DNA of 64,000 nucleotides from Gammaproteobacteria bacterium (GTDB taxonomy: Bacteria > Pseudomonadota > Gammaproteobacteria > S012-40). The notes under the pieces are model-generated. The model worked only from the letters and a program-made list of their open reading frames with translations, made no database searches and was not told where the DNA came from. The stretch covers positions 259,531 to 323,530 of the forward strand of contig JAOUMY010000005.1 in NCBI GenBank assembly GCA_029881255.1, given 5' to 3'. The translations under genes and the position numbers were made by a program. Each line of letters starts with the position of its first letter. The stretch's first letter is position 1. This document shows, piece by piece, positions 83 through 24,825 of the stretch.

Positions 83-1231
83 TTACGGTAGCAACAACAT
101 TGCTGATTTCTGATCTACCGAGGTTTGTTCAGCTGGATTTTCGCCAGGCGCGGCGGGCACAGATTCTGGTTGTACTGGTTGAGTCTCTTTTGTCGACGGT
201 TTAGAAGCAGGACTTTTCTCCAGAACGGGCTGAGCTTTGGCAGGCGGCAGTATCTCGAAAACCTGGACGCGACCATTGAGACTGTCCGCGACATACAGAT
301 AACCCTTATGGACTTTCATGTCGCTAACGAATCGAAACTCGCCTCGACCGTAACCATTACTACCAATAACGTCGATCAACTTGCCCTGCTGAAAAACCTT
401 GATAATACTTTCATTCTTTTCGGAGACGTAAACACGCCCAAAGTTATCAACTGTCAGTGCGGTAGGGAATATCAACTGACCTTCACCAAAATGGGTCAGA
501 TAACGGCCTTCGTTGTCGAGTACCTGAACGCTGAGCTCAATACGATCGCTAAGATAAAACCCATCGGCCGTTTTAATCATATCGGTGATGATGCGAAATT
601 TACCCGGCCCTTCACCGCGACCACCAATACCGCGTAATGGCTCACCACGCTTATTGAAAACAACCACATGGCTATACACTTCGTCGGCGACGAAAACTTC
701 GCCATTGTCTTCATTGACAGAAACGGCAACCGGACGAGAAATGTTTGGGCCGTGAAAATAGCTACGGATTAGATTGCCATCGGGATCAAAATGCAGCACG
801 CGACGACCTTCGATATCAGCCAAATAGAATGAATGATCGGCTGCGACATAGATATCGGTGGCGTCTTCGGCGACTTCAGCACCAACACCTGCCATCGGGT
901 CCATACGTCCATCGACGAGTGAATAACGGAAAATATATCCATCACCGGCGTCGAAGATATACATGATGTCATCACGTAGCCCGATCGAGACAGGTCTTTC
1001 TAAATCATGGGAGTCGTCACCAACGAGAAATCTCTTAAATCCATCACCTGAGCCCAGACCGACACGGTCTATTGTTGCTCGGTAGCGCAACGTTTTGGCT
1101 TCGGTATCGACACTCGGATGTATGGGCGACATTTTCTCTGGCGCAATCGAACATCCCGCCATGAAAATCGCCAGTGCAATTGAGACTATTTGTAGCGCAG
1201 GCCTACGCTTTTTCTGGGTTCTCTGTGGCAT
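83..1231 (-). CDS. NHL-repeat (six-bladed beta-propeller) lipoprotein. The N-terminus has a lipobox (LAIFMAGCS) and the C-terminus is a Pro/Glu-rich tail. The 5' end overlaps the upstream gene by 46 nt, so the true start may be internal.
   Basis: Repeated [YF]VAD / GxGxGxF segments typical of NHL repeats (e.g. IYVAADHSFYLADIEGRRVLHFD, VFVADEVYSHVVVFNKRGE, LYVADSLNGRVQVFE). Lipobox present. Paralog of the ORF at 8904-9971. Confidence 0.6.
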   Translation of the reverse strand: MPQRTQKKRRPALQIVSIALAIFMAGCSIAPEKMSPIHPSVDTEAKTLRYRATIDRVGLGSGDGFKRFLVGDDSHDLERPVSIGLRDDIMYIFDAGDGYIFRYSLVDGRMDPMAGVGAEVAEDATDIYVAADHSFYLADIEGRRVLHFDPDGNLIRSYFHGPNISRPVAVSVNEDNGEVFVADEVYSHVVVFNKRGEPLRGIGGRGEGPGKFRIITDMIKTADGFYLSDRIELSVQVLDNEGRYLTHFGEGQLIFPTALTVDNFGRVYVSEKNESIIKVFQQGKLIDVIGSNGYGRGEFRFVSDMKVHKGYLYVADSLNGRVQVFEILPPAKAQPVLEKSPASKPSTKETQPVQPESVPAAPGENPAEQTSVDQKSAMLLLP

Positions 1232-1782
1232 CGATTACACTCGTAAGGTGGAAATGCAACTTTTCCATGACAAACACCGCAGTACTCACCTTCCATGATT
1301 TTTGCCATAGTGACCGGATTTCCACCCCGCTGAGGAATAAAAATACCGGGATGGCAGTTCTGACAGGTCAACCAGATGGTGTGCGGACGATGGGGAAAAC
1401 GCACATAAGGCATAGAAGCCGTGTTCTGAAAAATGACGTCGAAATCGACGGCGTGCATTTTGTCTTCTTGGGTAAGACCGGCGCGGGGATCAACCATTCC
1501 TTTGTCCAAGGTCTCGACCCAGTTAATCACACCACGTTCATCTCTGGGAAAATTAAGCATGGCTTCTGCGGGTGGCTGCAGTAATTTTACCGCTTCATTA
1601 GCGGGATCATGTATACCGTCTTCCGCAATAGGCGTAACGTCTCCGTGTAATTGAAAATGACCGGAGCTCTCTTCATATCGTCCTTCTATACGTCCCTCAA
1701 GGCTCGCAGCAAATACGGCCGAGGTGTAAATAAACAGCAAGGACAAAATGATAGTAATTTTCAAGATGTTATTATGGCGCAT
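1186..1782 (-). CDS. Triheme c-type cytochrome, secreted (cytochrome c3/c7-like).
   Basis: Signal peptide. Three heme motifs: CQNCH, CGVCH, CNRCH. Conserved block FPHRPHTIWLTCQNCHPGIFIPQRGGNPVTMAKI shared with the paralogs at 3624-4322 and 4337-4792. Confidence 0.7.
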   Translation of the reverse strand: MRHNNILKITIILSLLFIYTSAVFAASLEGRIEGRYEESSGHFQLHGDVTPIAEDGIHDPANEAVKLLQPPAEAMLNFPRDERGVINWVETLDKGMVDPRAGLTQEDKMHAVDFDVIFQNTASMPYVRFPHRPHTIWLTCQNCHPGIFIPQRGGNPVTMAKIMEGEYCGVCHGKVAFPPYECNRCHREPRKSVGLRYK

Positions 1783-1928: not shown

Positions 1929-3404
1929 TTACATCGACACACCCAACAGCATCAATCCGCGTCTGACTTCCATCGTCGCATCCTTGATAATGACCAACGC
2001 TTCGGTATAGTTTCCCACACTTGCTGACTCTTGAGACTTATCGTGAAAGAACTGCCCTTTATCTACATAACGTTGCATCAAATCTACTGACGCCTTTGCC
2101 GGTTTTTTGACCTCAATTGCTACCGGAATCAGTTCCATATAACTGCGATAGCGATTGACTTCATATTCGTATTCATCTTTCGGCGTATCAAACTTTAACT
2201 CATAAACTAGCGTGCGCGAACCCAGCATCGCATTCATTGCTTCGGCGATAGCTCGCTCCGCAAGTCGAGCTTTGTTTATTGCCTGTTTGAAACTATTAGA
2301 CTTGGCAAGATTGTCTGCTTCCGCCAGTAGGCGCGCCACCTCTTTGGCATCGTAATCCACGATTTCGCGCTTTTCCTTTTGAGCGCTACGTTTTGCAGCG
2401 TCATGCGATTCTTCGAAACTCTGAACAGAAGCCAGGACACCCTCGTATTCGCCGCGCATCTCTTCAAGCTCTTCCTTACTAGGTCCCGCCTTTGGTTTTT
2501 TATTGAAAGCCGACACTACATCTTCAGCTAACGCCATGGCTTGATCCAACTCATTCTTATCTAAACTGGCCTGCGCCTGCTTAACTTTATTTTCTAAGTT
2601 ACTTTTCTCATCGGCATCAAGAGCTTTGCCTTTAAACATAATTAGCATGCTTGCATAACTGACTTTTTGTTTTACAACAGAAGGTGACAAGGTGCTCTTT
2701 GCACTTTGTTCCGGATTGGATTTTGAATATTGAGATTGCTCTGTATCGAGCTTAGCCTGCAATGCTTCGAGATCTGACCCAGCATCTACAATTAACAGCT
2801 TACCGCCCATAGACTGATGGTTACGACATTGATAATACAACTCGTCAGGCGTGTCTTTCTGCGGTTGGAAGGTAACATCTCCATTATAGGTAAATTGTCC
2901 GTCAACATTTCTGGTATAAACCGACGAACCCCAACCCTTGGGACTCTTACTCAAATAAAAATCGTGCTTTACGTTGGTTCTAACACGAAACGTATATTGC
3001 TTACCTCTTTCAAGGACTAACCATTTGCCTTGAACGCCATTCAAGGCGAATCCTTTTTCGTGTCCAATACCAAAAAACGGATGACTCTTGTTTTTTTCTT
3101 CAATATCGATCAGAAAAGTATTTGGCTCTTTTGGTAACTCCCTCGTTGGCTTTGAGACGGATGCCGCAATTGGCTCGGCTTTGAGCTCCGATACCGGCGC
3201 CGCCTCAATAATACTGATACTCGAAACTTCTAATTCGTCGTCCTCTGTTTTCTTCGGAGGAACCGGCTTAACCGCCTGCACTTCTGGCTGACTCGACTCT
3301 TTGGCAGGCATTTGGAAAAAAGCGCAACTCGATAATATTAACGCTGAGACGGCTATTGAACCTGATCGAAGAAGAACACTATTTAAGGACGAAATTCTCT
3401 TCAC
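1929..3404 (-). CDS. Lipoprotein with an N-terminal cupredoxin-like (type-1 copper) domain followed by a long alpha-helical/coiled-coil domain.
   Basis: Lipobox LSSCAF, then a Pro-rich linker. The domain carries candidate ligand His in SHPFFGIGH and VKHDFYL, and an amicyanin-like C-x2-H-x2-M site in YYQCRNHQSMGG; the upstream His lies about 48 residues before the Cys. The C-terminal ~280 aa is Lys/Glu/Ala-rich with heptad-like periodicity. Confidence 0.5.
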   Translation of the reverse strand: MKRISSLNSVLLRSGSIAVSALILSSCAFFQMPAKESSQPEVQAVKPVPPKKTEDDELEVSSISIIEAAPVSELKAEPIAASVSKPTRELPKEPNTFLIDIEEKNKSHPFFGIGHEKGFALNGVQGKWLVLERGKQYTFRVRTNVKHDFYLSKSPKGWGSSVYTRNVDGQFTYNGDVTFQPQKDTPDELYYQCRNHQSMGGKLLIVDAGSDLEALQAKLDTEQSQYSKSNPEQSAKSTLSPSVVKQKVSYASMLIMFKGKALDADEKSNLENKVKQAQASLDKNELDQAMALAEDVVSAFNKKPKAGPSKEELEEMRGEYEGVLASVQSFEESHDAAKRSAQKEKREIVDYDAKEVARLLAEADNLAKSNSFKQAINKARLAERAIAEAMNAMLGSRTLVYELKFDTPKDEYEYEVNRYRSYMELIPVAIEVKKPAKASVDLMQRYVDKGQFFHDKSQESASVGNYTEALVIIKDATMEVRRGLMLLGVSM

Positions 3405-3564: not shown

Positions 3565-3595
3565 TGACACATCCCTCATAAAGAGGGATGTGTCA
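3565..3595. other. Perfect 13-bp inverted repeat with a 5-nt loop: TGACACATCCCTC-ataaa-GAGGGATGTGTCA. It lies 29 nt downstream of the 3624-4322 gene on the minus strand and has no U-tract on either strand.
   Basis: Read directly from the sequence. Sits between two co-directional cytochrome genes, 160 nt upstream of the cupredoxin lipoprotein gene. Confidence 0.5.
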
Positions 3596-3623: not shown

Positions 3624-4322
3624 TTATCTCCAAGGGTTCTTGACAGTTGCATCACTCAAAGGCGGAGTCCAGTCAGCTGGCTTGGGCTTGGAGTGACACT
3701 TGGTACAGGATTTCGTAGTCGGTGGAAAAGAAACCTTTCCATGACACACACCACATTTCTGACCAAGAATAATCGCAGACATATTGATCTGATTTGCACC
3801 GCGCTGAGGTATGAAAATCTTCGGGTGACAGTTAGAACAATGTAGCCATTGAGTATGCGGCTTGTGTGGAAATACCACGTCAGGCACAGAGGCCTTTACA
3901 GGACGGACGATATCGAGGTCCATTACGAACGGCTCGACATCAGGATCCTGACGATCGTAACGTGGATTCAACATGCCATCATTTAGTGACTTAACCCAGT
4001 CAATGTGGTTACCAAATTCCGTTGTTGGCAAACCTTCGTATGCAACCTTTGGCGGCTGCAGTGAGAAGGTAGGTTCGTTAGCGGTATCATGGATTCCATC
4101 TTCTGCCGGCGCAGCATTTGGATCTTTGATCTTTTTCAACAGACGGTTGAAAGTGTTGGCACCAGATACATTCATCTTTGAAGGCACGGAACCAGTCACT
4201 TCAGCAGAAGAAACCGGTGCACTCGCGGCAACCGCTAAAGGAGCGATCTCAGACGCCTGTACCATTACTGGCAACGCGGTAAAAGTTACCGCAATTGCAA
4301 AAGTTCTTAATACGTTTCTCAT
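3624..4322 (-). CDS. Triheme c-type cytochrome, secreted; paralog of 1186-1782.
   Basis: Signal peptide. Heme motifs CSNCH, CGVCH, CTKCH. Block FPHKPHTQWLHCSNCHPKIFIPQRGANQINMSAI matches the paralog. Confidence 0.7.
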   Translation of the reverse strand: MRNVLRTFAIAVTFTALPVMVQASEIAPLAVAASAPVSSAEVTGSVPSKMNVSGANTFNRLLKKIKDPNAAPAEDGIHDTANEPTFSLQPPKVAYEGLPTTEFGNHIDWVKSLNDGMLNPRYDRQDPDVEPFVMDLDIVRPVKASVPDVVFPHKPHTQWLHCSNCHPKIFIPQRGANQINMSAIILGQKCGVCHGKVSFPPTTKSCTKCHSKPKPADWTPPLSDATVKNPWR

Positions 4323-4336
4323 TGGTATTCCTCTCC

Positions 4337-4792
4337 CTACTTCTTATAGCCGTCTTGTACAGTGTCTTTCTGATCCAGGGCCTTATAGGCTGGCGCTACG
4401 AGACGTTGTACTGTACTTCCGCTGATGTGAGTTGGTGTACCTGGAATACCTGAGTGACACATGCCGCAGTTTTCAACTGACCATGAAATCTCTCCGTTGT
4501 GGCAAGCACCACAAAATTGGCCATCAATAATCTTCGCCATTGTAATCTTGTTTCCACCGGCCTTGAACTTAAAGCCCAAATCCGCGTGACAAACCTTACA
4601 GCGAAAACGAATGCGGTGATACCAATGAGGAAAAACTACTGGTCGCATACCCGCCGCATCCGCGTAGTTATTGATGACGACGTCTGCATATTCTGCGTGA
4701 GCCGGCTGTGGCATTACCACAACTGCAACCCATGCTAATGCACCGAATAAGGCGAACTTCCAAATGTTAGTGCGCTCTGCTTTGGCTCTCAT
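4337..4792 (-). CDS. Small triheme c-type cytochrome (c3/c7-like), secreted.
   Basis: Signal peptide ending AHAEY. Heme motifs CKVCH, CGACH, CGMCH. Block VFPHWYHRIRFRCKVCH...KITMAKIIDGQFCGACH is related to the other triheme paralogs. Confidence 0.7.
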   Translation of the reverse strand: MRAKAERTNIWKFALFGALAWVAVVVMPQPAHAEYADVVINNYADAAGMRPVVFPHWYHRIRFRCKVCHADLGFKFKAGGNKITMAKIIDGQFCGACHNGEISWSVENCGMCHSGIPGTPTHISGSTVQRLVAPAYKALDQKDTVQDGYKK

Positions 4793-4853: not shown

Positions 4854-6671
4854 TCAGAAATTGCGATTAATCTGAAAAATCAACGATATGGATCCCAAAC
4901 CGGAATTACTTATAACACCACGCCCAACGAGTGAAGTCGCCAGTTTGCCAATGTTATACCCAAGCTGATTCTCCCAGTCTCCCTGCAAACGATCTTCCCC
5001 CGACTTATTGATCGTTGAAGAAAGATCAAACTTGGTCCGAAATTTGAGCTTATATATACCAAACAAACGCGAATGTTGGTAGCTCAATCTGCCCGTTGCC
5101 ACCGTCAGAAACTCGTCGAAAAATTTGGCATCGCTGCCTCCTTCGTCCCGACGAGAACTCTGCAAGGAAAAATTTCCACTCCAGGCGCTTAAGCGCGTGA
5201 TAGGCATGGATCGGGAGATTTGCATATTTATAATCTGCATCTCCAACGAATTATCGAAAAAGCTTCGAGTATCCATTGCCGTTAATTGCGCATACGCGCC
5301 GCCAGTGTTCACATCCAGATTCCACGCAAAGCTGCCTGAGTGTGACACCGTCAGTATCGAACCAAGATCTTTTGTTACTAAATATTCGCGTGCTTGTTGC
5401 GTGAAACTAGTACGCAAACTCGATCGGTTTCCCGTAATCCAATGTCGACTAATGCTATGACCAAGTCCTGCGTTCAAGTTTTGCGAAAGATCTAAGTCGA
5501 AGTCTGTTGAAGCACCTATTTTGCTGCGTTCACTTCCGGCGTCATTACCTATTCCAGCATTAGAAAACCAGCGATATTGAAAACCACGGCGTATCACTTG
5601 GTCAGATTGATACATTAACTGTACATTCTGTTTGGAACTTATATTCTGGCGACTCTCCGTATCGAGCGCGTTTCCACTAACTGACGCGGTCAGTTGCGTG
5701 CGACGATTTATCGTATAGGTACCTGAAAGAAAAGCATTCACGCCCTGGGTATCATTAATCAAAGAATCGTTATTATTGGTAAACTGGCGCAAATTTACAC
5801 GCAAAGCACCGTTAAGAACATATGGCCTGTAAACCGGACGCCAGTAGAAAAAGCTCGAGGCCTGACTCACTTCACTACTGCTGTCATTCGTACCACTCTT
5901 GTCCGTGTAATTGATATGAGACCCAAGAGTCTTTATATAAAACTCACTATTCGGAACGTAATGGTGCATGGCGGTGAGATACCCAGCTTGCGTTTTGCTC
6001 CCCGGGGTAATCCCTCCCTCTCTTGTCTGATAAGAACCTGTCGCATAAAAATTATGGTTGGCAACACGCGACTGTATTTTTCCGCCATAAGTCTGTTCAC
6101 TTGAATCACCAATCGTACTTGACGTCTGTCTGGCCCGATCCTGTATCCACAAATCTAACTGATCACCGCTACGACCGATAAAACTCTGCTTAACACCGAA
6201 AAAACGCGTTTTGATATCGAGCCCAAGCCTAAGCAGATCTTTTCCTGGAAATTTTACTACTGAATCACTAGTCGCAGGATCAAGATTGTTCTGCATGTAA
6301 AAAGAAGCCACCATCGGCGCACGACTGCGGGGTAAAAATCGAAAATCGCTTCTTGAAGACAACAATAAGGATCGCTTCTCTACGCCCTCTTCCACCAATG
6401 AAAACGCACCGGTACCGGATCCGCCCACGTTAAACGTCGCAAACCATGGCTGCCATAAATAACTATCCGCGTTTAATGAACCGACTACATAAGAGCTCTG
6501 TGATCGCTTTGCCTCTTCAGTGACATACAAAGCGTAGTTATAGCCCAAGTTGCCACTCAAATTCAGGGGAGACGTCGATGCCTGAACGGCCGACAGAAGA
6601 AGACCGCAAAATAATATCGCGAATACCACAGCTGCAGGTCTAAACATTATCACCTGCACTGTATGCACCAT
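4854..6671 (-). CDS. Large outer-membrane beta-barrel (porin-like) protein, about 600 aa. It has no CxxCH motif.
   Basis: Signal peptide (AVQAS). Ser/Thr/Asn/Gln/Gly/Tyr-rich composition with alternating hydrophobic residues throughout. C-terminal Phe (…INRNF) as in many outer-membrane proteins. Confidence 0.6.
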   Translation of the reverse strand: MVHTVQVIMFRPAAVVFAILFCGLLLSAVQASTSPLNLSGNLGYNYALYVTEEAKRSQSSYVVGSLNADSYLWQPWFATFNVGGSGTGAFSLVEEGVEKRSLLLSSRSDFRFLPRSRAPMVASFYMQNNLDPATSDSVVKFPGKDLLRLGLDIKTRFFGVKQSFIGRSGDQLDLWIQDRARQTSSTIGDSSEQTYGGKIQSRVANHNFYATGSYQTREGGITPGSKTQAGYLTAMHHYVPNSEFYIKTLGSHINYTDKSGTNDSSSEVSQASSFFYWRPVYRPYVLNGALRVNLRQFTNNNDSLINDTQGVNAFLSGTYTINRRTQLTASVSGNALDTESRQNISSKQNVQLMYQSDQVIRRGFQYRWFSNAGIGNDAGSERSKIGASTDFDLDLSQNLNAGLGHSISRHWITGNRSSLRTSFTQQAREYLVTKDLGSILTVSHSGSFAWNLDVNTGGAYAQLTAMDTRSFFDNSLEMQIINMQISRSMPITRLSAWSGNFSLQSSRRDEGGSDAKFFDEFLTVATGRLSYQHSRLFGIYKLKFRTKFDLSSTINKSGEDRLQGDWENQLGYNIGKLATSLVGRGVISNSGLGSISLIFQINRNF

Positions 6672-6845: not shown

Positions 6846-7820
6846 CTATAGACCAGCCATATCGATTGTTATAGTTGCCCTGGATTTCAGATTTCGCAAC
6901 AAATCTGCCCAGGCTTGTTTAGCCCGCTCCCGTTGCCATAACTGGCGGACTCGATCCTTAACCTTCTCGTATTCATTCAACTGGGCGTCAAGCGTCTCAT
7001 CCAAACGCAGTATTGCAACGCCCTGCAACATCATCACGGGGTCACTAATTTCATTTTCTTTCATTCCATTGAGGACTTTCTCTGCCTGTGGAGAAAGCAT
7101 ACCCTGATGTAGAAAGCCCATATCGCCGCCGTTAGACGCCGATGGATCACCAGAATGTATACGTGCGGCGTCAGCAAAGTCCGCTCCACTACGCAAGCGC
7201 TTAACCAGTTTTTGCGCTTCGTCGCTAGCAGCCTGCCAAACGTCAGCACCAGACGACGGCGCGACCTTTAACAGGATTAGCGAAACGCGGCGCTGCATAG
7301 GCGTGGTAAATAGCTCGCGGTTTCCATCGTAAAATTTCTGCGCTTCTTTTTCATTCGGGACACCTATCTCTTGCACCCTCTGACGAAGTTGTTCCAGCAA
7401 ATTTTCTTCTTCCAGCGCCGCACGCAAACCAGCCAGCATGCCCTCACGGTTACGCTCCCAATCTGGACGTGACGCATAACGTTTCTCATAAGTCTTGAGC
7501 TGAGATTCAACAGACTTAGCATCGGCTGTAATTTTCTGCTTCTTCGCCTCACGCAACAACAACAACCGCTCAATCAAGGTATCAGAGACTTCTTGTTTGA
7601 ATGCCTCAAGCTGTTGTTCAGGAATCTTGCCGTGGTAAAAGCGCTTGCGCACACCCGCCTGATAGGCCATACGAAAATCGTGTTTGGAAATCTGTTCGCC
7701 GTCTACGACAGCAAATGCATCATTCTCTTTGGCTGTTGCTTTGGCATCGGGCTTGGCATAGGCAGCTACCTGCCACAAAACCAGCAAAACGACTAAGCCC
7801 GCTTTTACAACTCCGCGCAT
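6846..7820 (-). CDS. Periplasmic peptidyl-prolyl cis-trans isomerase, SurA/PpiD-like with a parvulin domain.
   Basis: Signal peptide. Parvulin signature ...SGDPSASNGGDMGFLHQGML... A chaperone-like N-terminal helical region is present. Confidence 0.7.
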   Translation of the reverse strand: MRGVVKAGLVVLLVLWQVAAYAKPDAKATAKENDAFAVVDGEQISKHDFRMAYQAGVRKRFYHGKIPEQQLEAFKQEVSDTLIERLLLLREAKKQKITADAKSVESQLKTYEKRYASRPDWERNREGMLAGLRAALEEENLLEQLRQRVQEIGVPNEKEAQKFYDGNRELFTTPMQRRVSLILLKVAPSSGADVWQAASDEAQKLVKRLRSGADFADAARIHSGDPSASNGGDMGFLHQGMLSPQAEKVLNGMKENEISDPVMMLQGVAILRLDETLDAQLNEYEKVKDRVRQLWQRERAKQAWADLLRNLKSRATITIDMAGL

Positions 7821-7844: not shown

Positions 7845-8744
7845 TTACTTAACGTGACACGTCAAACACAAACCGCTTGGTGTGTCTGTATTGCTAATGC
7901 GCAGAAAAGTTGGGTTTACAGTTTCATGCGGATCATGGCAACTGGCGCATTCCACAAAAGGTTCTTGTTCAGACTGTCCAGGATAACCATTTTGTGCGTC
8001 ACGAGTATAAAGCAGGACATCATGTTTTGTACGCTCACCATCGCCGCCGTTGCGCCAATCATGGTCAACCCACCAGATATAACGACCGTCTTTTACTTTA
8101 TAGTTCACTTCAGCAAAATCAGGGTCGTTAGTGTCTCCACGACTGGGTTTCGGACGAGAAGCACTTACGCCGCCACCGGCATATTGCATTCCTATAGGGT
8201 GATCGTTGGTTAAGTCCGTTCCGAGATTTTGAACCAGACCCGGGGCAATCACAGAGCTATTGTCATTAGATCCGATTCCACCTAACTGCTGATCCGCGCC
8301 CGTCCAACGTCCAGCGGAAAAACTCGGGTTCTCTGCACCAGAACCAGGTTCATTGATGAGATTGTCGAGAGCTATGGTACCGTCATGACATGACAGACAG
8401 CCGATAGAAACAGAACCCACATCAGCAATACGTGCGTCGAATGTCGACGTGCCCAATTGATCATAAGTCTGATAAACAGCTGGATTGGCTAGTTTGCGAT
8501 TCCAGAGTGGAATAGCTGCGCTGGAATCACCACCATGAGGGGTATGACAGAAGACACAGATTTCGGCTGTTCCTGAAAATTCATTACGCTCGCCACCGTT
8601 GGCGCTGGTACTTGTACCCGTAACACCGAGATTGTGCACGGATTCGGCAATCCCAGCCCAGGCAACTTTTGTATTGACAGTCAACACAAGACCTATGCCT
8701 GCAACGACTGCAAAACTCGCCAAGGCCTTCAGGTTAGCTCTCAT
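7845..8744 (-). CDS. Tetraheme c-type cytochrome, secreted, with CxxCHxxH 'paired CXXCH'-style motifs.
   Basis: Signal peptide. Heme motifs CVFCHTPH, CLSCH, CASCHDPH, CLTCH. Gly/Asn/Asp-rich loops between the heme sites. Confidence 0.7.
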   Translation of the reverse strand: MRANLKALASFAVVAGIGLVLTVNTKVAWAGIAESVHNLGVTGTSTSANGGERNEFSGTAEICVFCHTPHGGDSSAAIPLWNRKLANPAVYQTYDQLGTSTFDARIADVGSVSIGCLSCHDGTIALDNLINEPGSGAENPSFSAGRWTGADQQLGGIGSNDNSSVIAPGLVQNLGTDLTNDHPIGMQYAGGGVSASRPKPSRGDTNDPDFAEVNYKVKDGRYIWWVDHDWRNGGDGERTKHDVLLYTRDAQNGYPGQSEQEPFVECASCHDPHETVNPTFLRISNTDTPSGLCLTCHVK

Positions 8745-8903: not shown

Positions 8904-9971
8904 TCAACGAATCACAGACTTGGCGCTGTCTTCATCGAGTAGTCGCCAAACATCAATCGATCTCAAGGCCTGATCCACTATATAGATAAATCCCTTTTCA
9001 TCGCTCGCCACTCCCGAGGGAAGTAGATATCGCCCTGGTTCACCGGGCGGCTCTTGATTCCCCAGCACCAACAACAATTGTCCGTCGCTGTTAAAAAACT
9101 GTACATTCTGAAATGCTGTGTCCGAAATCACGAACAAACCGTTATGAGTTAGCGCCAATCCACGCGGCCTGGCCAATTGCCCCAAGCCGCGCCCAAGCCC
9201 GGCCCAACTGCTTTTGTACTTTCCCTCGGAATCGAACACCTGAACACGAAAGTTTCCCGCATCCAACACCACAAGATCACCCTGCAGACTTACCGTCACC
9301 TGGTTAGGATGATTAAACTGTCCTTCACCATGACCGCGTTCACCAATAAAGCGTTTGAATTTACCTTCAGAATCAAACTGAGTGACGCGATGCCGTGTTG
9401 AATCCACGCCACCTCGATCCAGGGCAAACACATCGTTATTTAACGATGAAACCGCAACATCACTAAGCCGATCAAACAGATCCGGCGTTCCAATTTCGCG
9501 CAGATAAAGGCCATATGCATCGTAGACTATGATCTTACCGCGCGCACTATCGGCAATATAAACCTGCTTGTTGTTGTCGATTGCAATTCCTGCAGGTTTT
9601 TCAAGTTTTCCTTCCCTCCGCCAGCCGAATGCAAAAAAGCGCCGACGTTGCAAATCGAACATATACGCGACGGCATCGCGACTATCCGTAATGGCAACTA
9701 AACCGTGCCGAGCCGCAATATCATAAGGCTTGTTCATGCCGGGAGCGGACTCCAACTCGCCGGTCGCAAAGCGCTGGAATCTTTGCAGAGTGGAATCGCG
9801 AACAAGATCTTCGCCAGAACGAAGACGTGCTTCCAGTTTCAATCTGGGCAAGTCCGGCGCGGGTGGCCAGTAAAAAGGTTTATTCTCAATTATCGGTGCG
9901 TTTGAACACGCTGATAACACCGACGTCAGAAAAGCAAAGCTCAACCAAAAAACCAGAATACTGAACCGCAT
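8904..9971 (-). CDS. NHL-repeat beta-propeller lipoprotein; paralog of 83-1231.
   Basis: Lipobox VLSACS. Repeated [IV]A[IV][TD]D / YV[AF]D segments (LVAITDSRDAVAYMFD, VYIADSARGKIIVYD, LVVLDAGNFRVQVFD, LFVISDTAFQNVQFF, IYIVDQALRSIDVW). Confidence 0.6.
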   Translation of the reverse strand: MRFSILVFWLSFAFLTSVLSACSNAPIIENKPFYWPPAPDLPRLKLEARLRSGEDLVRDSTLQRFQRFATGELESAPGMNKPYDIAARHGLVAITDSRDAVAYMFDLQRRRFFAFGWRREGKLEKPAGIAIDNNKQVYIADSARGKIIVYDAYGLYLREIGTPDLFDRLSDVAVSSLNNDVFALDRGGVDSTRHRVTQFDSEGKFKRFIGERGHGEGQFNHPNQVTVSLQGDLVVLDAGNFRVQVFDSEGKYKSSWAGLGRGLGQLARPRGLALTHNGLFVISDTAFQNVQFFNSDGQLLLVLGNQEPPGEPGRYLLPSGVASDEKGFIYIVDQALRSIDVWRLLDEDSAKSVIR

Positions 9972-11818: not shown

Positions 11819-12274
11819 ATGGCATTAGCGATCACTCTTCATCTTTTGGCCGCAATCGTTTGGATTGGGGGAATGTTTTTCGCGTATATGGCGCTTCGAC
11901 CGGCGGCCGCTAGGGTGCTAGAACCACCACCCAGACTCCATCTGTGGCAACTCACTTTTAAACGCTTTTTCGTCTGGGTCTGGGTGTGCGTATTAGTTCT
12001 GCCACTAACCGGCTACTGGATGGTTTTTTTCGTACTTGATGGGTTTGGTCAAGCTGCCCTGTACATCCATATCATGCATTTCCTTGGACTGGTCATGATT
12101 GCGATTTATATGTTTGTTTATTTTCGCCCGTACCAGGGACTTAAAGATGCCATACGCGCAGAAGATTTCCCGTTAGCAGCTAGCCATCTCAATAAAATGC
12201 GACAACTCATAGCAATCAATCTCAGCCTGGGGATTGCAACAGTGTTAGTTGCTAGTATGGGGCGATATTTTTGA
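11819..12274 (+). CDS. Small four-TM membrane protein, CopD-like (putative copper-resistance protein D family).
   Basis: Four hydrophobic helices. N-terminal motif [14 protein letters not shown] resembles the CopD-family signature. Confidence 0.45.
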
Positions 12275-16688: not shown

Positions 16689-17072
16689 CTAGGCAGATAT
16701 CGGTGGACGAATGTCTGCTGGAAGTGAAACAGTAGTGAGCTTATAAATATCTCTGAACTGGACACCAGTTTTTTTCCAATTGGCGCCGCAGAAAACCTGA
16801 ACCTCGCTAACCGCAGCTGCAATCAATTGGGTTGAACAGGTATTATCCGGTCCGTAATCATTGTTGTCGCTCACCTGAATATCAGAAAAATCGACATCAC
16901 TCAGGTCAATTGCGCTGGAATGGGAAGAATGAGAATCGTGTTCGATAGAGGAGTTTATATCAACTCGATCATGGAAAAGACAGTCAACAGATGCGGCCAC
17001 CACAGACAACGGCATCCACGCTGCGATCAAAACGCAGTAAAAGACTATAGTTTTTTTTGTAAATCTTCCCAT
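16689..17072 (-). CDS. Small secreted His/Ser/Asp-rich protein; overlaps the czcA stop by 28 nt.
   Basis: Signal peptide. Mature part [35 protein letters not shown] with two Cys. Function unknown; possibly a periplasmic metal binder. Confidence 0.4.
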
Positions 17073-20000
17073 GTTTGAGATCTTTTCTTTTTTCTAAAAG
17101 AAGGCTTTTTAAACGTTGGTCGCCATGACCAAACTCGCCTCCAACTCCCCGGCCGTTTGATAGACCCGTTAATTGCTCCGTTATTTATAGCAAATTGTTT
17201 TCCTTTCCACAAGGCATATAAAGCGGGAATTAAAACCATGGAAACTAGCGGCGCGGTGATCATTCCACCCAGCATCGGAGCGGCAATCCGTCTCATTACT
17301 TCGGAACCAGTGCCGCCGCCAATCATTATCGGTGCCAACCCGGCCAATATCACCGCAGCAGTCATCGCTTTGGGACGGACACGCATTACCGCGCCATAAA
17401 CTATCGCGCGACGTAGTTCATTCAAATCCTTGGGATCAAAATCTTTTACTGCCTGGTTTAAGTAAACCAGCATAACAACACCAAATTCCGCTGACACTCC
17501 TGCCAGAGCGATCAATCCGACTCCGACCGCTACTGATAGATTGTAGTCAAGCAGATAAACCATCCACAATGCCCCCACTAGAGCAAGTGGCACAGCGCCC
17601 ATGACCATAAAGGATTCTGCAAAATTTCTGAAATTGAAATACAGCAACAACAAAATGATTACCAGGGTTAGAGGCACAACATAAATCAGCTTTTCCTTTG
17701 CACGCAGCATGTATTCGTATTGTCCGGACCAACCAAGGGCATAACCTGCAGGTAGTTCGACTTTTTCGAGAACAATTCTTTGAGCATCAGCGACGAAACT
17801 TCCCAGGTCGCGACCTCGGATATCAACATATACCCAGCCTGTTCGCCTCGCATCTTCACTTTTTATCATTCCTGGCCCGTCGGCGATGGAGACAAAGGCA
17901 ACATTGCCCAGGGTGATCTGACCGCCCCCTGGTGTAACAATCGGTAAAGCCATCAGGTCATCAATAGAATCACGTACGTGTTGTGGATAGCGGATATTGA
18001 CCGGATAACGTTCCAGTCCTTCAACTGTTTGAGTAACATTTGCCCCACCCACAGCCATGCTGATAATTTCATGTACATCAGCGATGTTTAAGCCGTAGCG
18101 TGCGGCTGCACGTCTGTCAATATCCAAGTTAATATATCGACCACCTGCCACGCGTTCCGAAAAAACACCGGCGGCTCCCGGTACACTCTTCACCGCAGAC
18201 TCAACTTGCTCGCCGATCTTTTGTATCACGCCCAGATCAGGACCAAGAATCTTGATACCCAACGGAGTTTTTATACCCGTAGATATCATGTCTATACGTG
18301 TTTTGATCGGCATAACCCAGGCGTTTGTCAATCCGGGAAACTTCACCGTTTCATCGAGAATATTTTTCAGCTTATCGGTGGTCATCCCCTTACGCCATTC
18401 ACTGCGGGGCTTTAATTTGATCGTGGTTTCGATCATTGTAAGTGGAGCAGGATCGGTGGCTGTTTCGGCCCTGCCCACTTTACCGAATACAACATCGACT
18501 TCTGGAATGGTCTTTATCAAACGATCCGTAATTTGTAACAACTCGCCAGCTTTGCCGATTGATACACCGGTGAATGTGGTCGGCATATAGAGCAAATCAC
18601 CCTCATCCAATTCCGGCATAAACTCAGAACCCAATTCTCCATAGGGATATATCGTGGTTAAAACAACTGCAAAAGAAAGGACTACGACCGTCTTTGGCCA
18701 ATTGAGCACGAACTTAATGACCGGCAGATACATCGATATAAGGAATCGATTGATCGGATTTTTATGCTCTGAGGGAATATGTCCCCTTATAAAATATCCC
18801 ATCAATACAGGCATAAGTGTTATCGACAAACCCGCCGCTGCAGCCATGGCATATGTCTTGGTATAGGCTAGCGGGGAAAATAGTTTTCCTTCTTGCGCCT
18901 CAAGTGTAAAAACAGGAAGAAAACTCAAAGTAATTATCAACAACGAAAAGAATAGTGCCGGACCCACTTCAACCGCAGCACGCTGCATAGCAACCCAGCG
19001 ATTCTCATCTGTGATATTGCCCTTTTCAATATGTTTATGCGCATTTTCAACCATCACAATGGCTGCATCGACCATGGCACCTATGGCAATGGCAATTCCG
19101 CCCAGGGACATGATGTTAGAATTGATATTCTGATAATGCATTACGATATATGAGATCAATATACCGAGAGGCAAAATAACTATTGCCACCAATGCAGAAC
19201 GCAAATGAAATAGAAAGATTCCGCAAACAATTGCGACGACGATAAATTCTTCAATGAGCTTATCGCGTAGTGTTGTTATCGAACGCATGATGAGATCGGA
19301 ACGATCATATGTTTCGATGATTTCCACGCCTTCCGGCAAGCCCTTGGCGACCTGAGCCAATCGTGTTTTAACTGCCTCTATCGTGGTCAACGCGTTTTCA
19401 CCAAAACGCATCACGATAATGCCGCCAACGACCTCACCTTCACCATCGAGCTCGGCGATACCACGGCGCATCTGTGGGCCGATACGAATATTGGCAACAT
19501 CCTGCAGCAACACAGGCGTACCTTCTTCACTCACACCAAGCGGAATATGGCGAAGATCGTCCAGACCCTTGATATAACCTTTGGCACGAACCATATATTC
19601 AGCTTCGGCCATTTCGATAACAGAACCACCCACTTCCTGGTTGGCCCGTTGTATCGCTGTCTTCACATGATTGATATGCATGTTGTAAGCACGCAGACGA
19701 TCAGGATCCACCACCACCTGGTACTGTTTGACCATTCCGCCAACAGTTGCGACTTCTGAAACACCTGGTACGGTCTGTAGTTCGAAGCGTATAAACCAAT
19801 CTTGCAAGCTACGTAGTTGAGCGAGGTCATGATTGCCGCTGCGGTCAACGAGCGCGTACTCATAGATCCAGCCTACACCGGTCGCATCCGGTCCTAGCTG
19901 AGGTGTTGCCGACGGAGGCAAGGCCCCGGCGACTTGCGACAAATACTCGAGCACGCGGGAACGCGCCCAATATATATCTGTGCCATCTTTAAAAATGACA

Positions 20001-20281
20001 TAGACGTATGAATCACCGAAAAAGGAATAACCACGCACTGCTGTAGTCCCGGGTACCGAGAGCATGGCTGTGGTAATGGGGTAGGTTACCTGGTCCTCAA
20101 CAACTTCCGGCGACTGACCTGGAAATGAGGTTTTAATAATAACTTGTAGGTCAGATAGATCAGGAATCGCATCCAAAGGTGTATTCTTTACCGAGTAAAC
20201 CCCCCAAACTGCGAGGATTATGGTAAAGATGAGTACTAGAGGCCTATTTCGAATCGACCAGCGAATTATTTGTGCAATCAT
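17045..20281 (-). CDS. czcA: CzcA/CusA-family heavy-metal efflux RND inner-membrane pump.
   Basis: 1078 aa with the 12-TM RND architecture. N-terminus [17 protein letters not shown]... matches the CusA/CzcA family. Lys-rich C-terminal tail. Confidence 0.9.
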
Positions 20282-20391
20282 ATCTACTACCGAACAATAT
20301 CCGCCGCGTCACTATACTTAATGAATGACATCGGCATGTCATTTATTTTTATTGAATTCTTGCCGATCAATTTCCCGGAAATTGTCAGATA

Positions 20392-21849
20392 TTATCCGCC
20401 GGCCATACGCATAAGGGCAGCACGCATGCTGCTTTCAGAATCGATCAAAAACTGGCTCGATACAACCACTTCCTGATCCTCTTCCAACCCGCCAACAACC
20501 TCGATGCGATCATCCGTTTCGATACCTGCATGAATAATCACGGGCTTGAATTTTCCTTCTCCAAGGTGGGTAATCACCCTGGTTTGATTGCCCTGGCGAA
20601 TCACTGCCTCACGTGGGACAGTCAAAACTTGCCGCTTTGGACGTGCGAAAATGCTGATATCGGCATACATATTAGGTTTGAGGACTTCATCGGGATTGTC
20701 AAAACGCAGACGCGCCTTCACACTTCTGGTGCGGGCATCGAGGCTTGGATAAATATATTCAACCTCGCCTTCCCATACCTTTTCAGGCATAAACGACAAC
20801 CTGGCTTCTGCACCTTGTCCTTCCTTGACCCAATCAATCTGATTTTCGAATACGTCGACCATCAGCCAGACTGTGGACAGATCGGCAATACTGATCACGG
20901 ACTTAGACGGTGGCACAAATTCCCCTTCCGATACATTCAAACGCGTGACGAATCCGTCCTGGGGCGCATAGAAACTGACCAGTTGCTCCACTTCACGAGT
21001 ATCGTTCAAACGGGCAATCTGTTGCTCCGAAACACCGAGGGCACGAAGACGCTCCCGAGAGGCATCAATCAATCCATTGGCGCTATCTCCCAGTTCAAGC
21101 GCCTGCAGAAATTCTTCCTGGCTATTGACGAGCTTGGGCGAGTATAGCTGGAACAAGAGATCACCCTTGGCAACCTTCTCACCTGTTGTTTTGACCGCGA
21201 GCTTCTCGACCCAGCCCTCGGTGCGCAAACTCACTGTTCTGAGATTGTTGTCATTATAATTGATATAACCGACGCTCTCGATCTTGCGATATATCGTACG
21301 CCGCTTCACCTTATCCAGTCTTACACCCAATGCATTGATCACGGTCGGCGCTAAGGTCACGACGCCTGAATCGCCGGTGTTCTCCAATGGCACCAGGTCC
21401 ATTCCACATATCGGACAGTCTGCCTCCGGATCTTCCATCACAATTTCCGGGTGCATAGGACAAACAAATTTAGGATTGGAGTGCTTTTGCGCGTGCTCTA
21501 CCGCAGTTTCTTTTGGCGCTTCGTTCACAGGGGAAATGCTCTGGTTTCCAAAAGAGTCATGGTTATGGCCATCACCGCTCAATTCACTCAGCATGGCAGG
21601 CGCTGCAACGACAGGGGCCGCCTGAATATGACTAGATGAATTCTCATCGGCAGCCACCGCCTGTCTATCACCCAGCCCGGAGAACACATATATATTGATG
21701 GGTACCCCAACCGCGAGTAACACGATTGCACCAAGTATCTGTTTACGTGCAACAGATGACATGTGTCGCGCATTCGGCAGGAAAATCTGTTCCAGCCACT
21801 TAAATACCAACCAAACACCGTAGCGTGTTGTTCTAGTAACACGTTCCAT
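20392..21849 (-). CDS. czcB: RND periplasmic adaptor (CzcB/CusB-like membrane fusion protein) with an N-terminal heavy-metal-binding Cys motif.
   Basis: FVCPMHPEIVMEDPEADCPICGMDLVPL metal-binding module, followed by MFP beta-barrel/lipoyl-like segments. Confidence 0.8.
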   Translation of the reverse strand: MERVTRTTRYGVWLVFKWLEQIFLPNARHMSSVARKQILGAIVLLAVGVPINIYVFSGLGDRQAVAADENSSSHIQAAPVVAAPAMLSELSGDGHNHDSFGNQSISPVNEAPKETAVEHAQKHSNPKFVCPMHPEIVMEDPEADCPICGMDLVPLENTGDSGVVTLAPTVINALGVRLDKVKRRTIYRKIESVGYINYNDNNLRTVSLRTEGWVEKLAVKTTGEKVAKGDLLFQLYSPKLVNSQEEFLQALELGDSANGLIDASRERLRALGVSEQQIARLNDTREVEQLVSFYAPQDGFVTRLNVSEGEFVPPSKSVISIADLSTVWLMVDVFENQIDWVKEGQGAEARLSFMPEKVWEGEVEYIYPSLDARTRSVKARLRFDNPDEVLKPNMYADISIFARPKRQVLTVPREAVIRQGNQTRVITHLGEGKFKPVIIHAGIETDDRIEVVGGLEEDQEVVVSSQFLIDSESSMRAALMRMAGG

Positions 21850-21851
21850 GT

Positions 21852-23159
21852 TTATGCTTCCCCTGCCAGATATTGAAGGTCGTAGTGTGCCTTTGCCCTT
21901 TCCACTCTCAAACGCAGAGTTTGTAAATTACTATCCAGTTCTCGCAAACGCGCACGAACCAATTCTGAGAAATCACTAGTCTGGCTTTGATAGGATTTTC
22001 TCGAAGACTCGGAATACTGTGCCGCCTTAGGCAACACATCATCCATGTAAAATTTTAAACGGTCACCCAAGCGGAACCAGTCCGCATAACTTGCATCTAG
22101 CAAACGTTTTAGCTCGCGACGCTGGCCATCTGCTGCGTCCGACGCAGAATTTACCAAATGGCCTTTTGCATTCAAACGACGATTCTGTCGCTTCTCAGTA
22201 AAAAACGGCATATCTACTGACACGACGGCAGACAAAAAATCACTTCTTGGAATAACACTACCATCAGCTGAATTGACGCCATCAGCCCGATAACCGTAGC
22301 TAATATCTACATTCCAGCTCGGCTTAAATGTAGACCGTTCTGCGAGAACATCCTTGCGACTTGCGCCTAACATGGCTTTTTTTACGGCCAGGGATGGGTG
22401 GTTTTCGAGACGATGATCGAGCTCCTCAACCGTAGGCAAGGTTGGGAGCTGAGGAAACACTGTCGATAGTGCATGTTTGCGCACTGAAGCACCCGTCCAT
22501 TTTTCAAGTTCTGCGATCGCTTTTTCACGCATTTGCTGTATGTCGTCTTCGCGATCTTGAAGTAAACTCAATTCTAATTGAGCACGTATCACATCTTGTT
22601 GTTGACCACGGCCTGCACGATATTGGTATCGAGTTACTTTCACTAACTGGTTAAATATCTCTTCGCTTTCTTTTACCAGGGCAAGCGAATGTGTTTGCAA
22701 ATAAACTTCCATCCACGCTTTGCGCAAATTTCGTAAAACTGTCATTGCCCTGTCGACAGCTTTCGCACGCTCGGCCTCGGCCATTAGCAACTTTTTTTCC
22801 GTCTTTGCCTCAAGCATGCCTTTCGAAGGAAAACCCTGATTGATGCCTACTATTGCCTGCGTCATACCTTCAGAGTTAAAACTAAACGCATTGTTACCGA
22901 TTATCGGAAAATTTACCGCGCCAACGCGAAATTTCGGATCAGGCAGTTGCCCGTCGGCTACTGACTCTTCCATAAAGGACTGGGCATTTGCCTGGAACTC
23001 GGCAATGAGTGGGTCGTTTTGGATGGCAACCGTCTCAGCATCCTTGATAGTCAATTCAAGCGCGTGAACGGTATTCACGCCCGCAATCACCGTCAGGATT
23101 ACTAAGACCCAAAGTCGCAAGTAATTCATACTTCCCACACCTGTTATCTTGCTCAACAA
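21852..23159 (-). CDS. czcC: TolC-family outer-membrane efflux protein (CzcC/CusC-like).
   Basis: Signal peptide. Two helical/beta repeat halves typical of outer-membrane factors. Confidence 0.8.
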   Translation of the reverse strand: MLSKITGVGSMNYLRLWVLVILTVIAGVNTVHALELTIKDAETVAIQNDPLIAEFQANAQSFMEESVADGQLPDPKFRVGAVNFPIIGNNAFSFNSEGMTQAIVGINQGFPSKGMLEAKTEKKLLMAEAERAKAVDRAMTVLRNLRKAWMEVYLQTHSLALVKESEEIFNQLVKVTRYQYRAGRGQQQDVIRAQLELSLLQDREDDIQQMREKAIAELEKWTGASVRKHALSTVFPQLPTLPTVEELDHRLENHPSLAVKKAMLGASRKDVLAERSTFKPSWNVDISYGYRADGVNSADGSVIPRSDFLSAVVSVDMPFFTEKRQNRRLNAKGHLVNSASDAADGQRRELKRLLDASYADWFRLGDRLKFYMDDVLPKAAQYSESSRKSYQSQTSDFSELVRARLRELDSNLQTLRLRVERAKAHYDLQYLAGEA

Positions 23160-23889: not shown

Positions 23890-24825
23890 TCAAGCTCCCT
23901 GTATGAATTTTGGTAGCGAGGCAAATTTTTCCGCCTGCTCAAGCACGAATTCACTAAAACGCTTCGCCACAGGCGAGAGCCTTTTTCCTTCGCGATGAAC
24001 CAGATACCAGTGACGTAAAATCGGAAAGTGCTCCACATTCAATAGCTTCAACTTACCTATCTCCAATTCCAGGCGTACCGTATGTGCCGATACTATTCCC
24101 AGACCCAGACCCGCTTGAACCGCGTGCTTTATGGCTTCGTTACTGGTCATTTCCATCCTGGAGGCAGCTTCAAAGCCGTACTGCTGAAAAAATCGCTCCA
24201 TCGCTATCCGCGTACCCGAAACTTTCTCTCTGACAACAAAGGTTTCCTGCACCAGGCGCTTGAGAGAAATATTTGTTTCGTTTACCAGCGGGTGATCGGG
24301 GGGCGCAATAACTACCAATGGGTTATCCATAAAGGGTTCCGCCACAAGCTTCAGGTCTCGCGGTGGCCGACCCATGATGACCAGATCGGTCTGATTATTC
24401 TCAAGCTCATCAAGTAGCGTTTGGCGGTTAGTCACATCCAATTTGTACTGAATATTGCCAAACTGCTGCGAAAATGCAGCAAGTAGCTGGGTTGCAAAGT
24501 CGTTAGCTGTAGTCGCTACCGCGATGTTCAAGGTACCACGCCTGACACCGCGCAAATCTTCGAGCACGCCCTCTGCTTCATCTAGTAGACCGAGTATCTC
24601 CCTACTATAATGCAGCATCTCGCGGCCGGCCTCGGTAAGAAAGTTCTTTTTGCCGAACTGTTCGAGCAGGGAAACACCCACGTGATCTTCTAATTGTTTG
24701 ATCTGCATGGACACTGCCGGTTGTGAAAGATGAAGTTCTTCGGCCGCACGGGTAAAGCTCAAATGTCGGCCTACAGACTCAAAAACCTTTAATTGTCTTA
24801 GGGTTACGTGAAGCATTCGGGTCAA
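23890..24825 (-). CDS. cbbR: LysR-family regulator, CbbR-type (divergent from cbbL).
   Basis: HTH LRQLKVFESVGRHLSFTRAAEELHLSQPAVSMQIKQLE plus a LysR substrate-binding domain. Position divergent from RuBisCO is the classic CbbR arrangement. Confidence 0.85.
   Translation of the reverse strand: MTRMLHVTLRQLKVFESVGRHLSFTRAAEELHLSQPAVSMQIKQLEDHVGVSLLEQFGKKNFLTEAGREMLHYSREILGLLDEAEGVLEDLRGVRRGTLNIAVATTANDFATQLLAAFSQQFGNIQYKLDVTNRQTLLDELENNQTDLVIMGRPPRDLKLVAEPFMDNPLVVIAPPDHPLVNETNISLKRLVQETFVVREKVSGTRIAMERFFQQYGFEAASRMEMTSNEAIKHAVQAGLGLGIVSAHTVRLELEIGKLKLLNVEHFPILRHWYLVHREGKRLSPVAKRFSEFVLEQAEKFASLPKFIQGA

Follow-up and report, generated by a model that had tools for sequence, protein, structure and literature searches.

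The uet (undecaheme electron transfer) gene clusters are the leading candidate route for electron uptake from cathodes or minerals in Tenderiales and related uncultured Gammaproteobacteria. For the Tenderiales cluster, Eddie et al. listed a "Cupredoxin UetF" among the encoded proteins (Eddie et al. 2022, bioRxiv 10.1101/2022.05.06.490989). In Ca. Tenderia electrophaga the gene at the orthologous position between the trihemes, Tel_16525, was termed a tetratricopeptide-repeat protein in a metatranscriptome study, where it was cotranscribed with three triheme genes that ranked among the highest-expressed genes of this organism, and its peptides were detected by proteomics on biocathodes (PMC5371394). 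In our study we analyzed a further cluster of this kind in a stretch of 64,000 nucleotides from a Gammaproteobacteria bacterium (assembly GCA_029881255.1, contig JAOUMY010000005.1), hereafter the window. The open reading frame at its center of interest is the uetF gene of this cluster and a fresh copy of an already named family; it is not new as a kind, because the place of uetF in uetABCDEFGH has already been annotated as "cupredoxin". New here are the ligand analysis, the conserved design of a lipoprotein with a tether, the assignment to PF25489 together with the size of that family, and the modular history of the helical part.

The uet locus in the window

The genes in the window follow the order uetABCDEFGH as defined for Tenderiales (Table 1). 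uetI and uetJ (undecahaem) are present in related loci and would here fall past the left edge of the window. The unnamed NHL-repeat lipoprotein gene is found at the same upstream position in the loci L002-L004, L083 and L085. For UetC, which owes its name to the Tenderiales description (bioRxiv 10.1101/2022.05.06.490989), the Pfam search returned no family. The first-pass annotation of this DNA had placed the gene inside a multiheme cytochrome cluster, which is borne out by the triheme genes uetD, uetE and uetG and the tetraheme gene uetA around uetF.

Table 1. Positions of the uet genes in the window and of the parts of uetF
Feature	Position	Strand	Basis or remark
NHL-repeat lipoprotein (unnamed), lipobox LSA-C	8904..9971	(-)	upstream of uetA
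uetA, tetraheme cytochrome	7845..8744	(-)	4 CXXCH, PF09699
uetB, SurA-like PpiC-type peptidyl-prolyl isomerase	6846..7820	(-)	PF00639, PF13624
uetC, 605-aa putative outer-membrane beta-barrel	4854..6671	(-)	position and homology, 70+ syntenic loci
uetD, triheme c7-type cytochrome	4337..4792	(-)	3 CXXCH
uetE, triheme c7-type cytochrome, Sec signal	3624..4322	(-)	3 CXXCH, TIGR04257, PF14522
uetF	1929..3404	(-)	ORF, GTG start, 491 aa; public gene call identical; between uetE and uetG
Signal peptide with lipobox LSS-C27, residue +2 Ala	3324..3404	(-)	sequence
Disordered Pro/Glu/Ala/Ser/Lys-rich tether, residues 28-95	3120..3323	(-)	pLDDT, composition
Cupredoxin domain, residues 96-208, Pfam PF25489	2781..3119	(-)	fold, profile match
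His147, predicted N-terminal copper ligand, in invariant H-D pair	2964..2966	(-)	conservation, amicyanin alignment
Predicted ligand loop C193-R-N-H196-Q-S-M199 (C-x2-H-x2-M)	2808..2828	(-)	conservation, alignment
Helical module, residues 209-491, weakly YfdX-like	1932..2780	(-)	model, conservation
uetG, triheme c7-type cytochrome	1186..1782	(-)	3 CXXCH
uetH, NHL-repeat beta-propeller lipoprotein, lipobox MAG-C	83..1231	(-)	PF01436, PF17170

The same 491-aa protein, identical throughout, was also called by JGI on a metagenome contig of 328 kb (P0001), and the closest relative in a genome, from an Ectothiorhodospiraceae MAG, is 50% identical. In a full-length BLASTP comparison UetF shared 31-33% identity (E = 1e-76) with the syntenic open reading frames of the Ca. 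Tenderia sp. MAGs L036 and L046, these MAG proteins standing in for the reference protein ALP54627.1. The NCBIfam search found no family matching the protein, and a PDB sequence search with full-length UetF returned nothing meaningful. A set of 107 homologues was available for comparison.

A tethered cupredoxin domain and its candidate copper ligands

In the UetF chain the lipobox LSS-C27 is followed by a 68-residue tether, the beta domain and the helical region. The AlphaFold2 model of the full-length protein (104 sequences, mean pLDDT 86) displays a signal helix, a segment of low pLDDT, the beta domain and about ten helices; since its pTM is low (0.48), the mutual arrangement of these parts is not reliably predicted. 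The signal peptide matches the lipobox pattern [LVI][ASTVI][GAS]C, and a lipobox is present in at least 81 of the 107 homologues. At position +2, 73 of these 81 proteins carry G, S or A and eight carry V, Q, T or L; Asp occurs in none of them. Because residue +2 of UetF is Ala and not Asp, the protein most likely resides in the inner leaflet of the outer membrane, as predicted by the +2 rule of Lol sorting in E. coli, a rule that may not transfer to this host. Exposure at the cell surface is a possible alternative location.

Between residues 28 and 94 the chain behind the anchor consists of 15% Pro, 15% Glu, 12% Ala and 12% Ser, and the pLDDT is mostly below 50 across residues 28-81 of the AlphaFold2 model. 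The tether of the homologues is rich in Ala, Pro, Glu, Val and Lys; its length is conserved (median 94 residues, with 69-135 as the 5-95% range, among 113 lipobox-bearing homologues) and its sequence is not. A polymer estimate suggests a typical reach of about 6 nm at a contour length of about 24 nm, which would be comparable with periplasmic dimensions. Both the lipobox and the Pro-rich linker, which had been recognized at first pass, recur in the homologues.

The beta domain is an eight-stranded Greek-key beta-sandwich of the cupredoxin type, with its strands located between residues 96 and 206 and modeled at a pLDDT above 90 in the full-length prediction. A model of residues 88-212 alone (31 sequences) reached a pLDDT of 96.4 and a pTM of 0.89, and the top 50 Foldseek matches to the domain in the PDB were all cupredoxins, so that structure prediction and fold comparison both confirmed the fold suspected beforehand. 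The best Foldseek match was rusticyanin (E = 1.2e-4, TM 0.51-0.54), followed by two-domain laccases and CueO. A comparison of the domain with known copper proteins gave scores of 9.5 for the copper nitrite reductase 6tfd, 7.9 for rusticyanin, 7.7 for nitrosocyanin, 7.5 for AcoP, 6.9 for auracyanin B, 6.5 for azurin and 6.4 for the lipid-modified azurin of Neisseria. By profile, the isolated domain matches PF25489, the At5g54830-like domain, with 31.0 bits at a gathering cut-off of 27, as do all 31 aligned homologues (31/31); the score of full-length UetF, 26.2 bits, lies slightly below the cut-off. PF00127, the classical plastocyanin/azurin family, was not matched by the UetF domain and was weakly matched by four of the 31 homologues (best E = 0.0027). 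Moreover, the PDB profile search with the domain returned no significant cupredoxin, pseudoazurin appearing at E = 0.42, and a literature search limited to the gene name At5g54830 yielded no copper or electron-transfer role for the PF25489 domain.

The first-pass annotation had drawn candidate His ligands from two motifs, SHPFFGIGH (residues 107-115) and VKHDFYL (145-151), and had read YYQCRNHQSMGG (190-201) as a C-x2-H-x2-M loop as in amicyanin and plastocyanin. Counted wherever the 107 homologues align, H147 of the second motif and the adjacent D148 are each kept in 102/102, whereas H115 is kept in 38 of the 107 homologues and drops out as a candidate. H108 is also conserved (100/103), but it lies in the beta1-beta2 loop outside the four canonical ligand positions. 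In the loop, C193, N195 and H196 are each kept in 103/103, R194 in 102/103, and M199 and G200 in 104/105. The C-x2-H-x2-M spacing is that of amicyanin, whereas plastocyanin has C-x2-H-x4-M, and of the proposed likenesses only the one to amicyanin stands. In a profile-profile alignment with hhalign H147, C193, H196 and M199 fell on H53, C92, H95 and M98 of amicyanin (E = 5.8e-5); the numbering of the amicyanin sequence used reproduces the known ligand numbers. An alignment with rusticyanin set C193, H196 and M199 on C138, H143 and M148 with two gaps of two residues.

In the model, H147 immediately precedes strand 149-152, C193 is the last residue of strand 188-193, and the loop that leads into strand 201-206 holds H196 and M199. 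By sequence position this is the layout of a type-1 site, with a His before strand 4 and Cys, His and Met in the loop that joins the last two strands. Conservation in the homologues, the check proposed at first pass, gave a clear answer: H147, C193, H196 and M199 are essentially invariant in about 100 homologues, and very probably they form the predicted type-1 copper ligand set of UetF. C193 is the sole Cys of mature UetF, and beyond residue 45 a single Cys is present in 97 of 100 homologues. Because this lone Cys is invariant, C193 reads as a copper thiolate ligand and not as part of a disulfide, which was rejected since the mature protein offers no other Cys. A degenerate haem motif was likewise rejected for CRNH, as the sequence is C-x-x-H and not C-H, a second Cys is absent and the fold is all-beta.

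When the domain profile was run through an exhaustive HMMER search, 4,910 cluster representatives passed E <= 1e-3 and 855 passed E <= 1e-10, the clusters being defined at 50% identity. Many members of this domain family are large, with two to seven or more tandem copies, and some of the large proteins also carry a MopE copper motif, DOMON, CHRD, SprB or PKD repeats, or a T9SS sorting domain; one passes PF00127 as well. After realignment of the best 150 with the UetF set, H...H-[P/D]...C-x-x-H-x-x-M was found in almost every complete copy. The UetF type reads H-H-D...C-R-N-H-x-x-M, and in most other family members the first ligand is followed by Pro. The H...C-x2-H-x2-M set is retained in at least 4,900 clusters at 50% identity, frequently as tandem copies in surface proteins. 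Because the four ligand positions are under selection across a divergent domain family, a real metal site is supported. The company of SprB, PKD and T9SS sorting domains in large surface proteins could also point to a binding or adhesion module, whose site would hold another metal or none and whose Cys, His and Met would be conserved for structure; many cupredoxin folds are indeed copper-less, for instance the CyoA and coagulation factor domains among the matches. However, copper-less cupredoxins normally lose their ligands, while here thousands of divergent copies retain all four, and the relatives co-occur with the redox- or metal-related MopE, DOMON and CHRD. We therefore regard a module of that kind as very improbable.

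The helical module and the composition of related clusters

Residues 212-491 of UetF contain 12% Ala, 11% Glu and 11% Lys and are predicted to be helical, in agreement with the Lys/Glu/Ala-rich helical region of about 280 residues described at first pass. The long coiled coil and the stalk that had been read into this region did not hold. In the model, about ten short helices are placed between residues 212 and 486 (pLDDT above 90), rather than uninterrupted helices or an extended rod between anchor and domain, and the structural matches of the region were three-helix bundles only. As the order in the chain is anchor, tether, cupredoxin and helical module, the helical region lies distal to the cupredoxin and cannot be a stalk; only the 68-residue tether spaces the domain from the membrane.

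The last 100 residues are the best conserved part of UetF apart from the ligand loop, and the most conserved stretch of the helical module runs from LVYELKFDTPKDEYEYEV (399-416) through the C-terminal LGV. With a profile built from this module, about 37 stand-alone proteins of 208-318 aa were found, mostly from Magnetococcales and often encoded as adjacent pairs, with ordinary Sec signals and without a lipobox. The Magnetococcales protein P0105 (285 aa) and the adjacent open reading frame (306 aa) match UetF residues 317-489 and 398-489 only, and in P0105 LVYELKFDTPKDEYEYEV is identical to UetF. Read from sequence, the helical module is an independent and apparently older unit of the Uet system. 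One stand-alone relative is named "YfdX family protein" by NCBI, and PF10938 (YfdX) was weakly matched by 8 of 27 helical-module sequences. Some UetF homologues reach its gathering cut-off, such as P0095 with 28.6 bits at a cut-off of 26.6, whereas UetF of the window itself gave no hit to PF10938. YfdX is, like the helical module, a periplasmic helical protein, and to our knowledge it has no established function. The PDB profile search with the module returned no sequence-related structure, with weak matches to designed TPR, MIT and S20 helical hairpins and YfdX at E = 9.4. Other Pfam matches were weak and scattered as well, and the names TPR, HEPN and YfdX, which sources use for some homologues, were for this reason not adopted.

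The cupredoxin domain was found in 136 genomes, all of them MAGs, in a scan of one genome per GTDB species. They include the gammaproteobacterial Ectothiorhodospiraceae, Chromatiales, Ca. Tenderia and Thiohalomonadales, and besides these Gallionella and Nitrosomonadales. Of the 80 species-level loci fetched, 75 have uet neighbours; uetD-uetE stands upstream in 71, uetG downstream in 68, and the full order from A to H is present in 52. The remaining five comprise four small cupredoxin-only proteins (L060, L067, L071, L081) and a two-domain protein (L080) whose gene is not part of a cytochrome cluster. There are cupredoxins with type-1-like sites that work in copper tolerance and not in respiration, and the window does encode a CopD-like gene and a CusCBA efflux system 2-13 kb away. 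On this basis the domain might handle copper, as a periplasmic chaperone or tolerance protein like CopI or of the CupA type, or by delivering copper to an oxidase. We consider such a role improbable, since the ligand set and its spacing are those of electron-transfer type-1 sites and not of Cys/Met-rich chaperone sites. The gene, moreover, lies between cytochrome genes in 75/80 loci and elsewhere is not found beside copper-resistance genes, and in the window neither the cop nor the cus genes belong to the conserved cluster, the CopD-like gene even being on the other strand.

Five uet-like loci lack the cupredoxin, four from Magnetococcales (L002, L084-L086) and one from a Burkholderiales MAG (L083). 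Their frame is A-B-C-D-E ... G ... NHL-large multihaem cytochrome-CcsBA, and the position of UetF is taken by helical-module genes alone, of which L083 has one and the other four loci two each. No match to the cupredoxin profile was found in any reading frame of these five loci. All five contain four genes with three CXXCH each, compared with three in the cupredoxin type, and in none of 68 cupredoxin-type loci is there an extra c7 gene between uetG and uetH. The uetE of L083 additionally carries a class-I cytochrome c domain. In this sample of five loci from about two lineages, the variant looks like an exchange of redox modules, copper against a triheme cytochrome. The fourth triheme where the cupredoxin is absent supports an electron-transfer role of the domain. 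A conduit can evidently exist without the cupredoxin domain, as the variant has none, and this weighs against a copper relay.

The same loci bear on the possibility that UetF is mainly a scaffold or assembly factor, the helical module of which organizes or chaperones the trihemes, the NHL propellers or the UetC barrel, with the cupredoxin as a lineage-specific accessory off the main electron path. The helical module is common to all cluster variants; in the uet-like clusters of Magnetococcales and Burkholderiales it is encoded as a protein of its own with a Sec signal, mostly in two copies, and the identity of LVYELKFDTPKDEYEYEV between UetF and a Magnetococcales protein fits this picture. That the cluster encodes a peptidyl-prolyl isomerase and NHL propellers suggests a system that depends heavily on assembly, and the 2017 Tenderia study took the orthologous gene as TPR-like and aligning cytochromes (PMC5371394). 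Nevertheless, the invariant ligand set and the lone Cys argue for a copper site under selection, and a fourth triheme where the cupredoxin is missing fits a redox role. As the principal function of UetF, scaffolding thus appears unlikely, though better founded than copper handling; it may also hold together with an electron-transfer function, one for each half of the protein.

Proposed role of UetF and comparison with known cupredoxins

The best explanation, and one we think probable, is that UetF is a tethered type-1 copper relay between the Uet trihemes and high-potential carriers. UetF would be made as a lipoprotein whose anchor sits in the outer membrane's inner leaflet, next to the UetC barrel, and its disordered tether of about 70 residues would let the small cupredoxin domain move within the periplasm. 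The domain would bind one type-1 copper via His147, Cys193, His196 and Met199, with the shortest known ligand loop, that of the amicyanin type. As we infer its redox partners and the direction of electron flow, the copper centre would act as a one-electron relay that exchanges electrons with the triheme proteins UetD, UetE and UetG encoded on either side, and through it the cytochrome conduit of the outer membrane would be connected with periplasmic carriers of high potential and with oxidases. The helical module, as a separate and older part, would probably dock UetF to other Uet components. A role as electron shuttle is plausible and is in line with how UetF has been annotated in print.

Type-1 copper sites typically have potentials of about +180 to +680 mV. 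Potentials in this range would fit electron uptake from a source at about +300 mV, such as the Tenderia biocathode. If confirmed, a type-1 copper in a conduit otherwise built of haems would delimit the potentials at which the pathway is likely to work and would predict a copper requirement for electroautotrophy. More tentatively, PF25489 as a whole may be a large unrecognized class of minimal-loop blue-copper domains, with UetF as a copper-haem junction in a pathway of extracellular electron uptake at neutral pH, its lipid-tethered copper centre being swappable in evolution with a fourth triheme and set on an older helical core; we hold this to be possible but less probable than the relay itself. 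With about 113 residues the domain would then also be a small and easily expressed target, with a clear optical and EPR read-out for a first Uet biochemistry. Natural comparison sets are the clusters with anchor, tether, cupredoxin and helical module on the one hand and the cupredoxin-less clusters with a fourth triheme on the other.

Among known cupredoxins, amicyanin of Paracoccus denitrificans has the same His...Cys-x2-His-x2-Met spacing, with all four ligands aligned to UetF, and it is a small single-copper periplasmic carrier, as proposed here for UetF. It differs in being soluble, with about 105 aa, in having methylamine dehydrogenase and cytochrome c551i and not multihaem cytochromes as partners, and in carrying Asn after the first His ligand where UetF has Asp; a shared sequence family is not recognizable. 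Rusticyanin and AcoP of Acidithiobacillus ferrooxidans are only 13-19% identical to the UetF domain, and rusticyanin is a soluble, acid-adapted protein with the longer loop C-x4-H-x4-M in contrast to C-x2-H-x2-M of UetF. Lipid anchoring is shared with Laz of Neisseria as well as with auracyanins, halocyanin and sulfocyanin. However, Laz ends after its azurin domain, whereas UetF continues into a 283-residue helical module, has a longer tether and belongs to a different cupredoxin subfamily. Within PF25489, most members have H-P after the first ligand and the UetF members H-D.

The closest described system is UetF of the Tenderiales cluster uetABCDEFGHIJ. The publications on Tenderia UetF are without a ligand analysis, a description of the lipoprotein and its tether or a separate helical module, all of which are given here. 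As in the window, the Tenderiales gene lies between two triheme c7 genes in a cluster with the order A-H, and Tenderia UetF, with about 500 aa, likewise consists of two parts, one of them the cupredoxin domain; its MAG homologues align with our protein over the full length.

The uetE-uetF gap and neighboring genes

The 219-nt gap between uetE and the gene of the predicted lipoprotein UetF contains, directly past the end of uetE, an inverted repeat whose 13-bp arms (TGACACATCCCTC ... GAGGGATGTGTCA) match perfectly around a loop of 5 nt; this repeat is found nowhere else in the window. The RNA of this gap was predicted to fold more stably than shuffled sequences (z = -2.9). Since the coding strand shows no clear T-tract, the repeat may function as an intercistronic stabilizer or attenuator and thereby control how much triheme cytochrome is made relative to UetF.

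Besides, copper-handling genes are located near the predicted cuproprotein UetF, yet outside the conserved uet synteny. These comprise a CopD-family gene 2 kb from the uet cluster and, farther away, a CusCBA-type efflux system consisting of an OEP, a CusB-like protein with a heavy-metal-binding domain and an AcrB-family pump. The divergent pair of a LysR-type regulator and a RuBisCO large-subunit gene agrees with an autotrophic lifestyle of the host, one that has been proposed for Tenderiales-like bacteria.

Coordinates of features in the window and, in the last row, in a related locus
Feature	Position	Strand	Remark
uetH	83-1231		NHL beta-propeller protein
Asp148 of UetF	2961-2963		directly after first ligand
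His108 of UetF	3081-3083		beta1-beta2 loop
Inverted repeat	3565-3595		flanked by uetE (stop 3624) and uetF (start 3404)
uetA	7845-8744		299-aa tetraheme cytochrome, paired-CXXCH motif at C-terminus
Second NHL gene	8904-9971		NHL beta-propeller protein
CopD-family gene	11819-12274	+	membrane protein
CusCBA-type system	17045-23159	-	heavy-metal RND efflux
LysR-type regulator and RuBisCO large subunit	23890-26412	divergent
UetF-like gene in L080	7187-8596		two-domain protein, Nitrosomonadales MAG

UetA and the predicted NHL lipoproteins

Close to uetA lie genes for a PPIase, for NHL propellers and for a large putative barrel, a set reminiscent of the neighborhoods of filament-forming cytochromes in Geobacter. 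Polymer formation has also been raised by Eddie et al. (2022, bioRxiv 10.1101/2022.05.06.490989). Both UetH and the second NHL protein have a lipobox (MAG↓C-S and LSA↓C-S, respectively), which, with UetF, brings the predicted outer-membrane-type lipoproteins of the cluster to three. For UetH, a PSORTb call of 'cytoplasmic' was given by Eddie et al. (2022).

Occurrence of the two UetF domains

In four Magnetococcales loci (L002, L084, L085 and L086) and in one Burkholderiales MAG (L083) the uet cluster lacks the cupredoxin. The helical module is encoded here by stand-alone genes, two in 4/5 loci and one in L083, together with four triheme c7 genes and CcsBA. In L084 and L086 CcsA is followed by a COX1-like gene, and in L083 uetE carries a class-I cytochrome c domain as a fusion. 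Relatives of UetF also exist beyond uet clusters: the gene of the two-domain UetF-like protein in L080 lies alongside housekeeping genes, and L060, L067, L071 and L081, from Gallionella and other Pseudomonadota MAGs, each contain a small cupredoxin-only ORF of roughly 150-190 aa, counting ORF calls that are not over-extended.

No fewer than 4,900 protein clusters contain the PF25489 cupredoxin-like domain of UetF (examples P0108-P0244), often in tandem with 2-7 or more copies per protein, all of which retain H...C-x2-H-x2-M. The proteins with such copies are large, such as P0108 (1400 aa), P0109 (2159 aa), P0120 (958 aa) and P0212 (1730 aa), and also contain MopE copper motifs, DOMON, CHRD, SprB or PKD repeats, or T9SS sorting signals. 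These large tandem proteins may be multi-copper surface redox proteins.

Conserved residues His108 and Asp148

His108 is conserved in 100 of 103 UetF proteins and occurs in many other PF25489 copies; Asp148 is invariant among UetF proteins. Both are candidates for tuning or extending the predicted copper site. At the position of Asp148, classical cupredoxins have Asn, whereas other PF25489 members have Pro.
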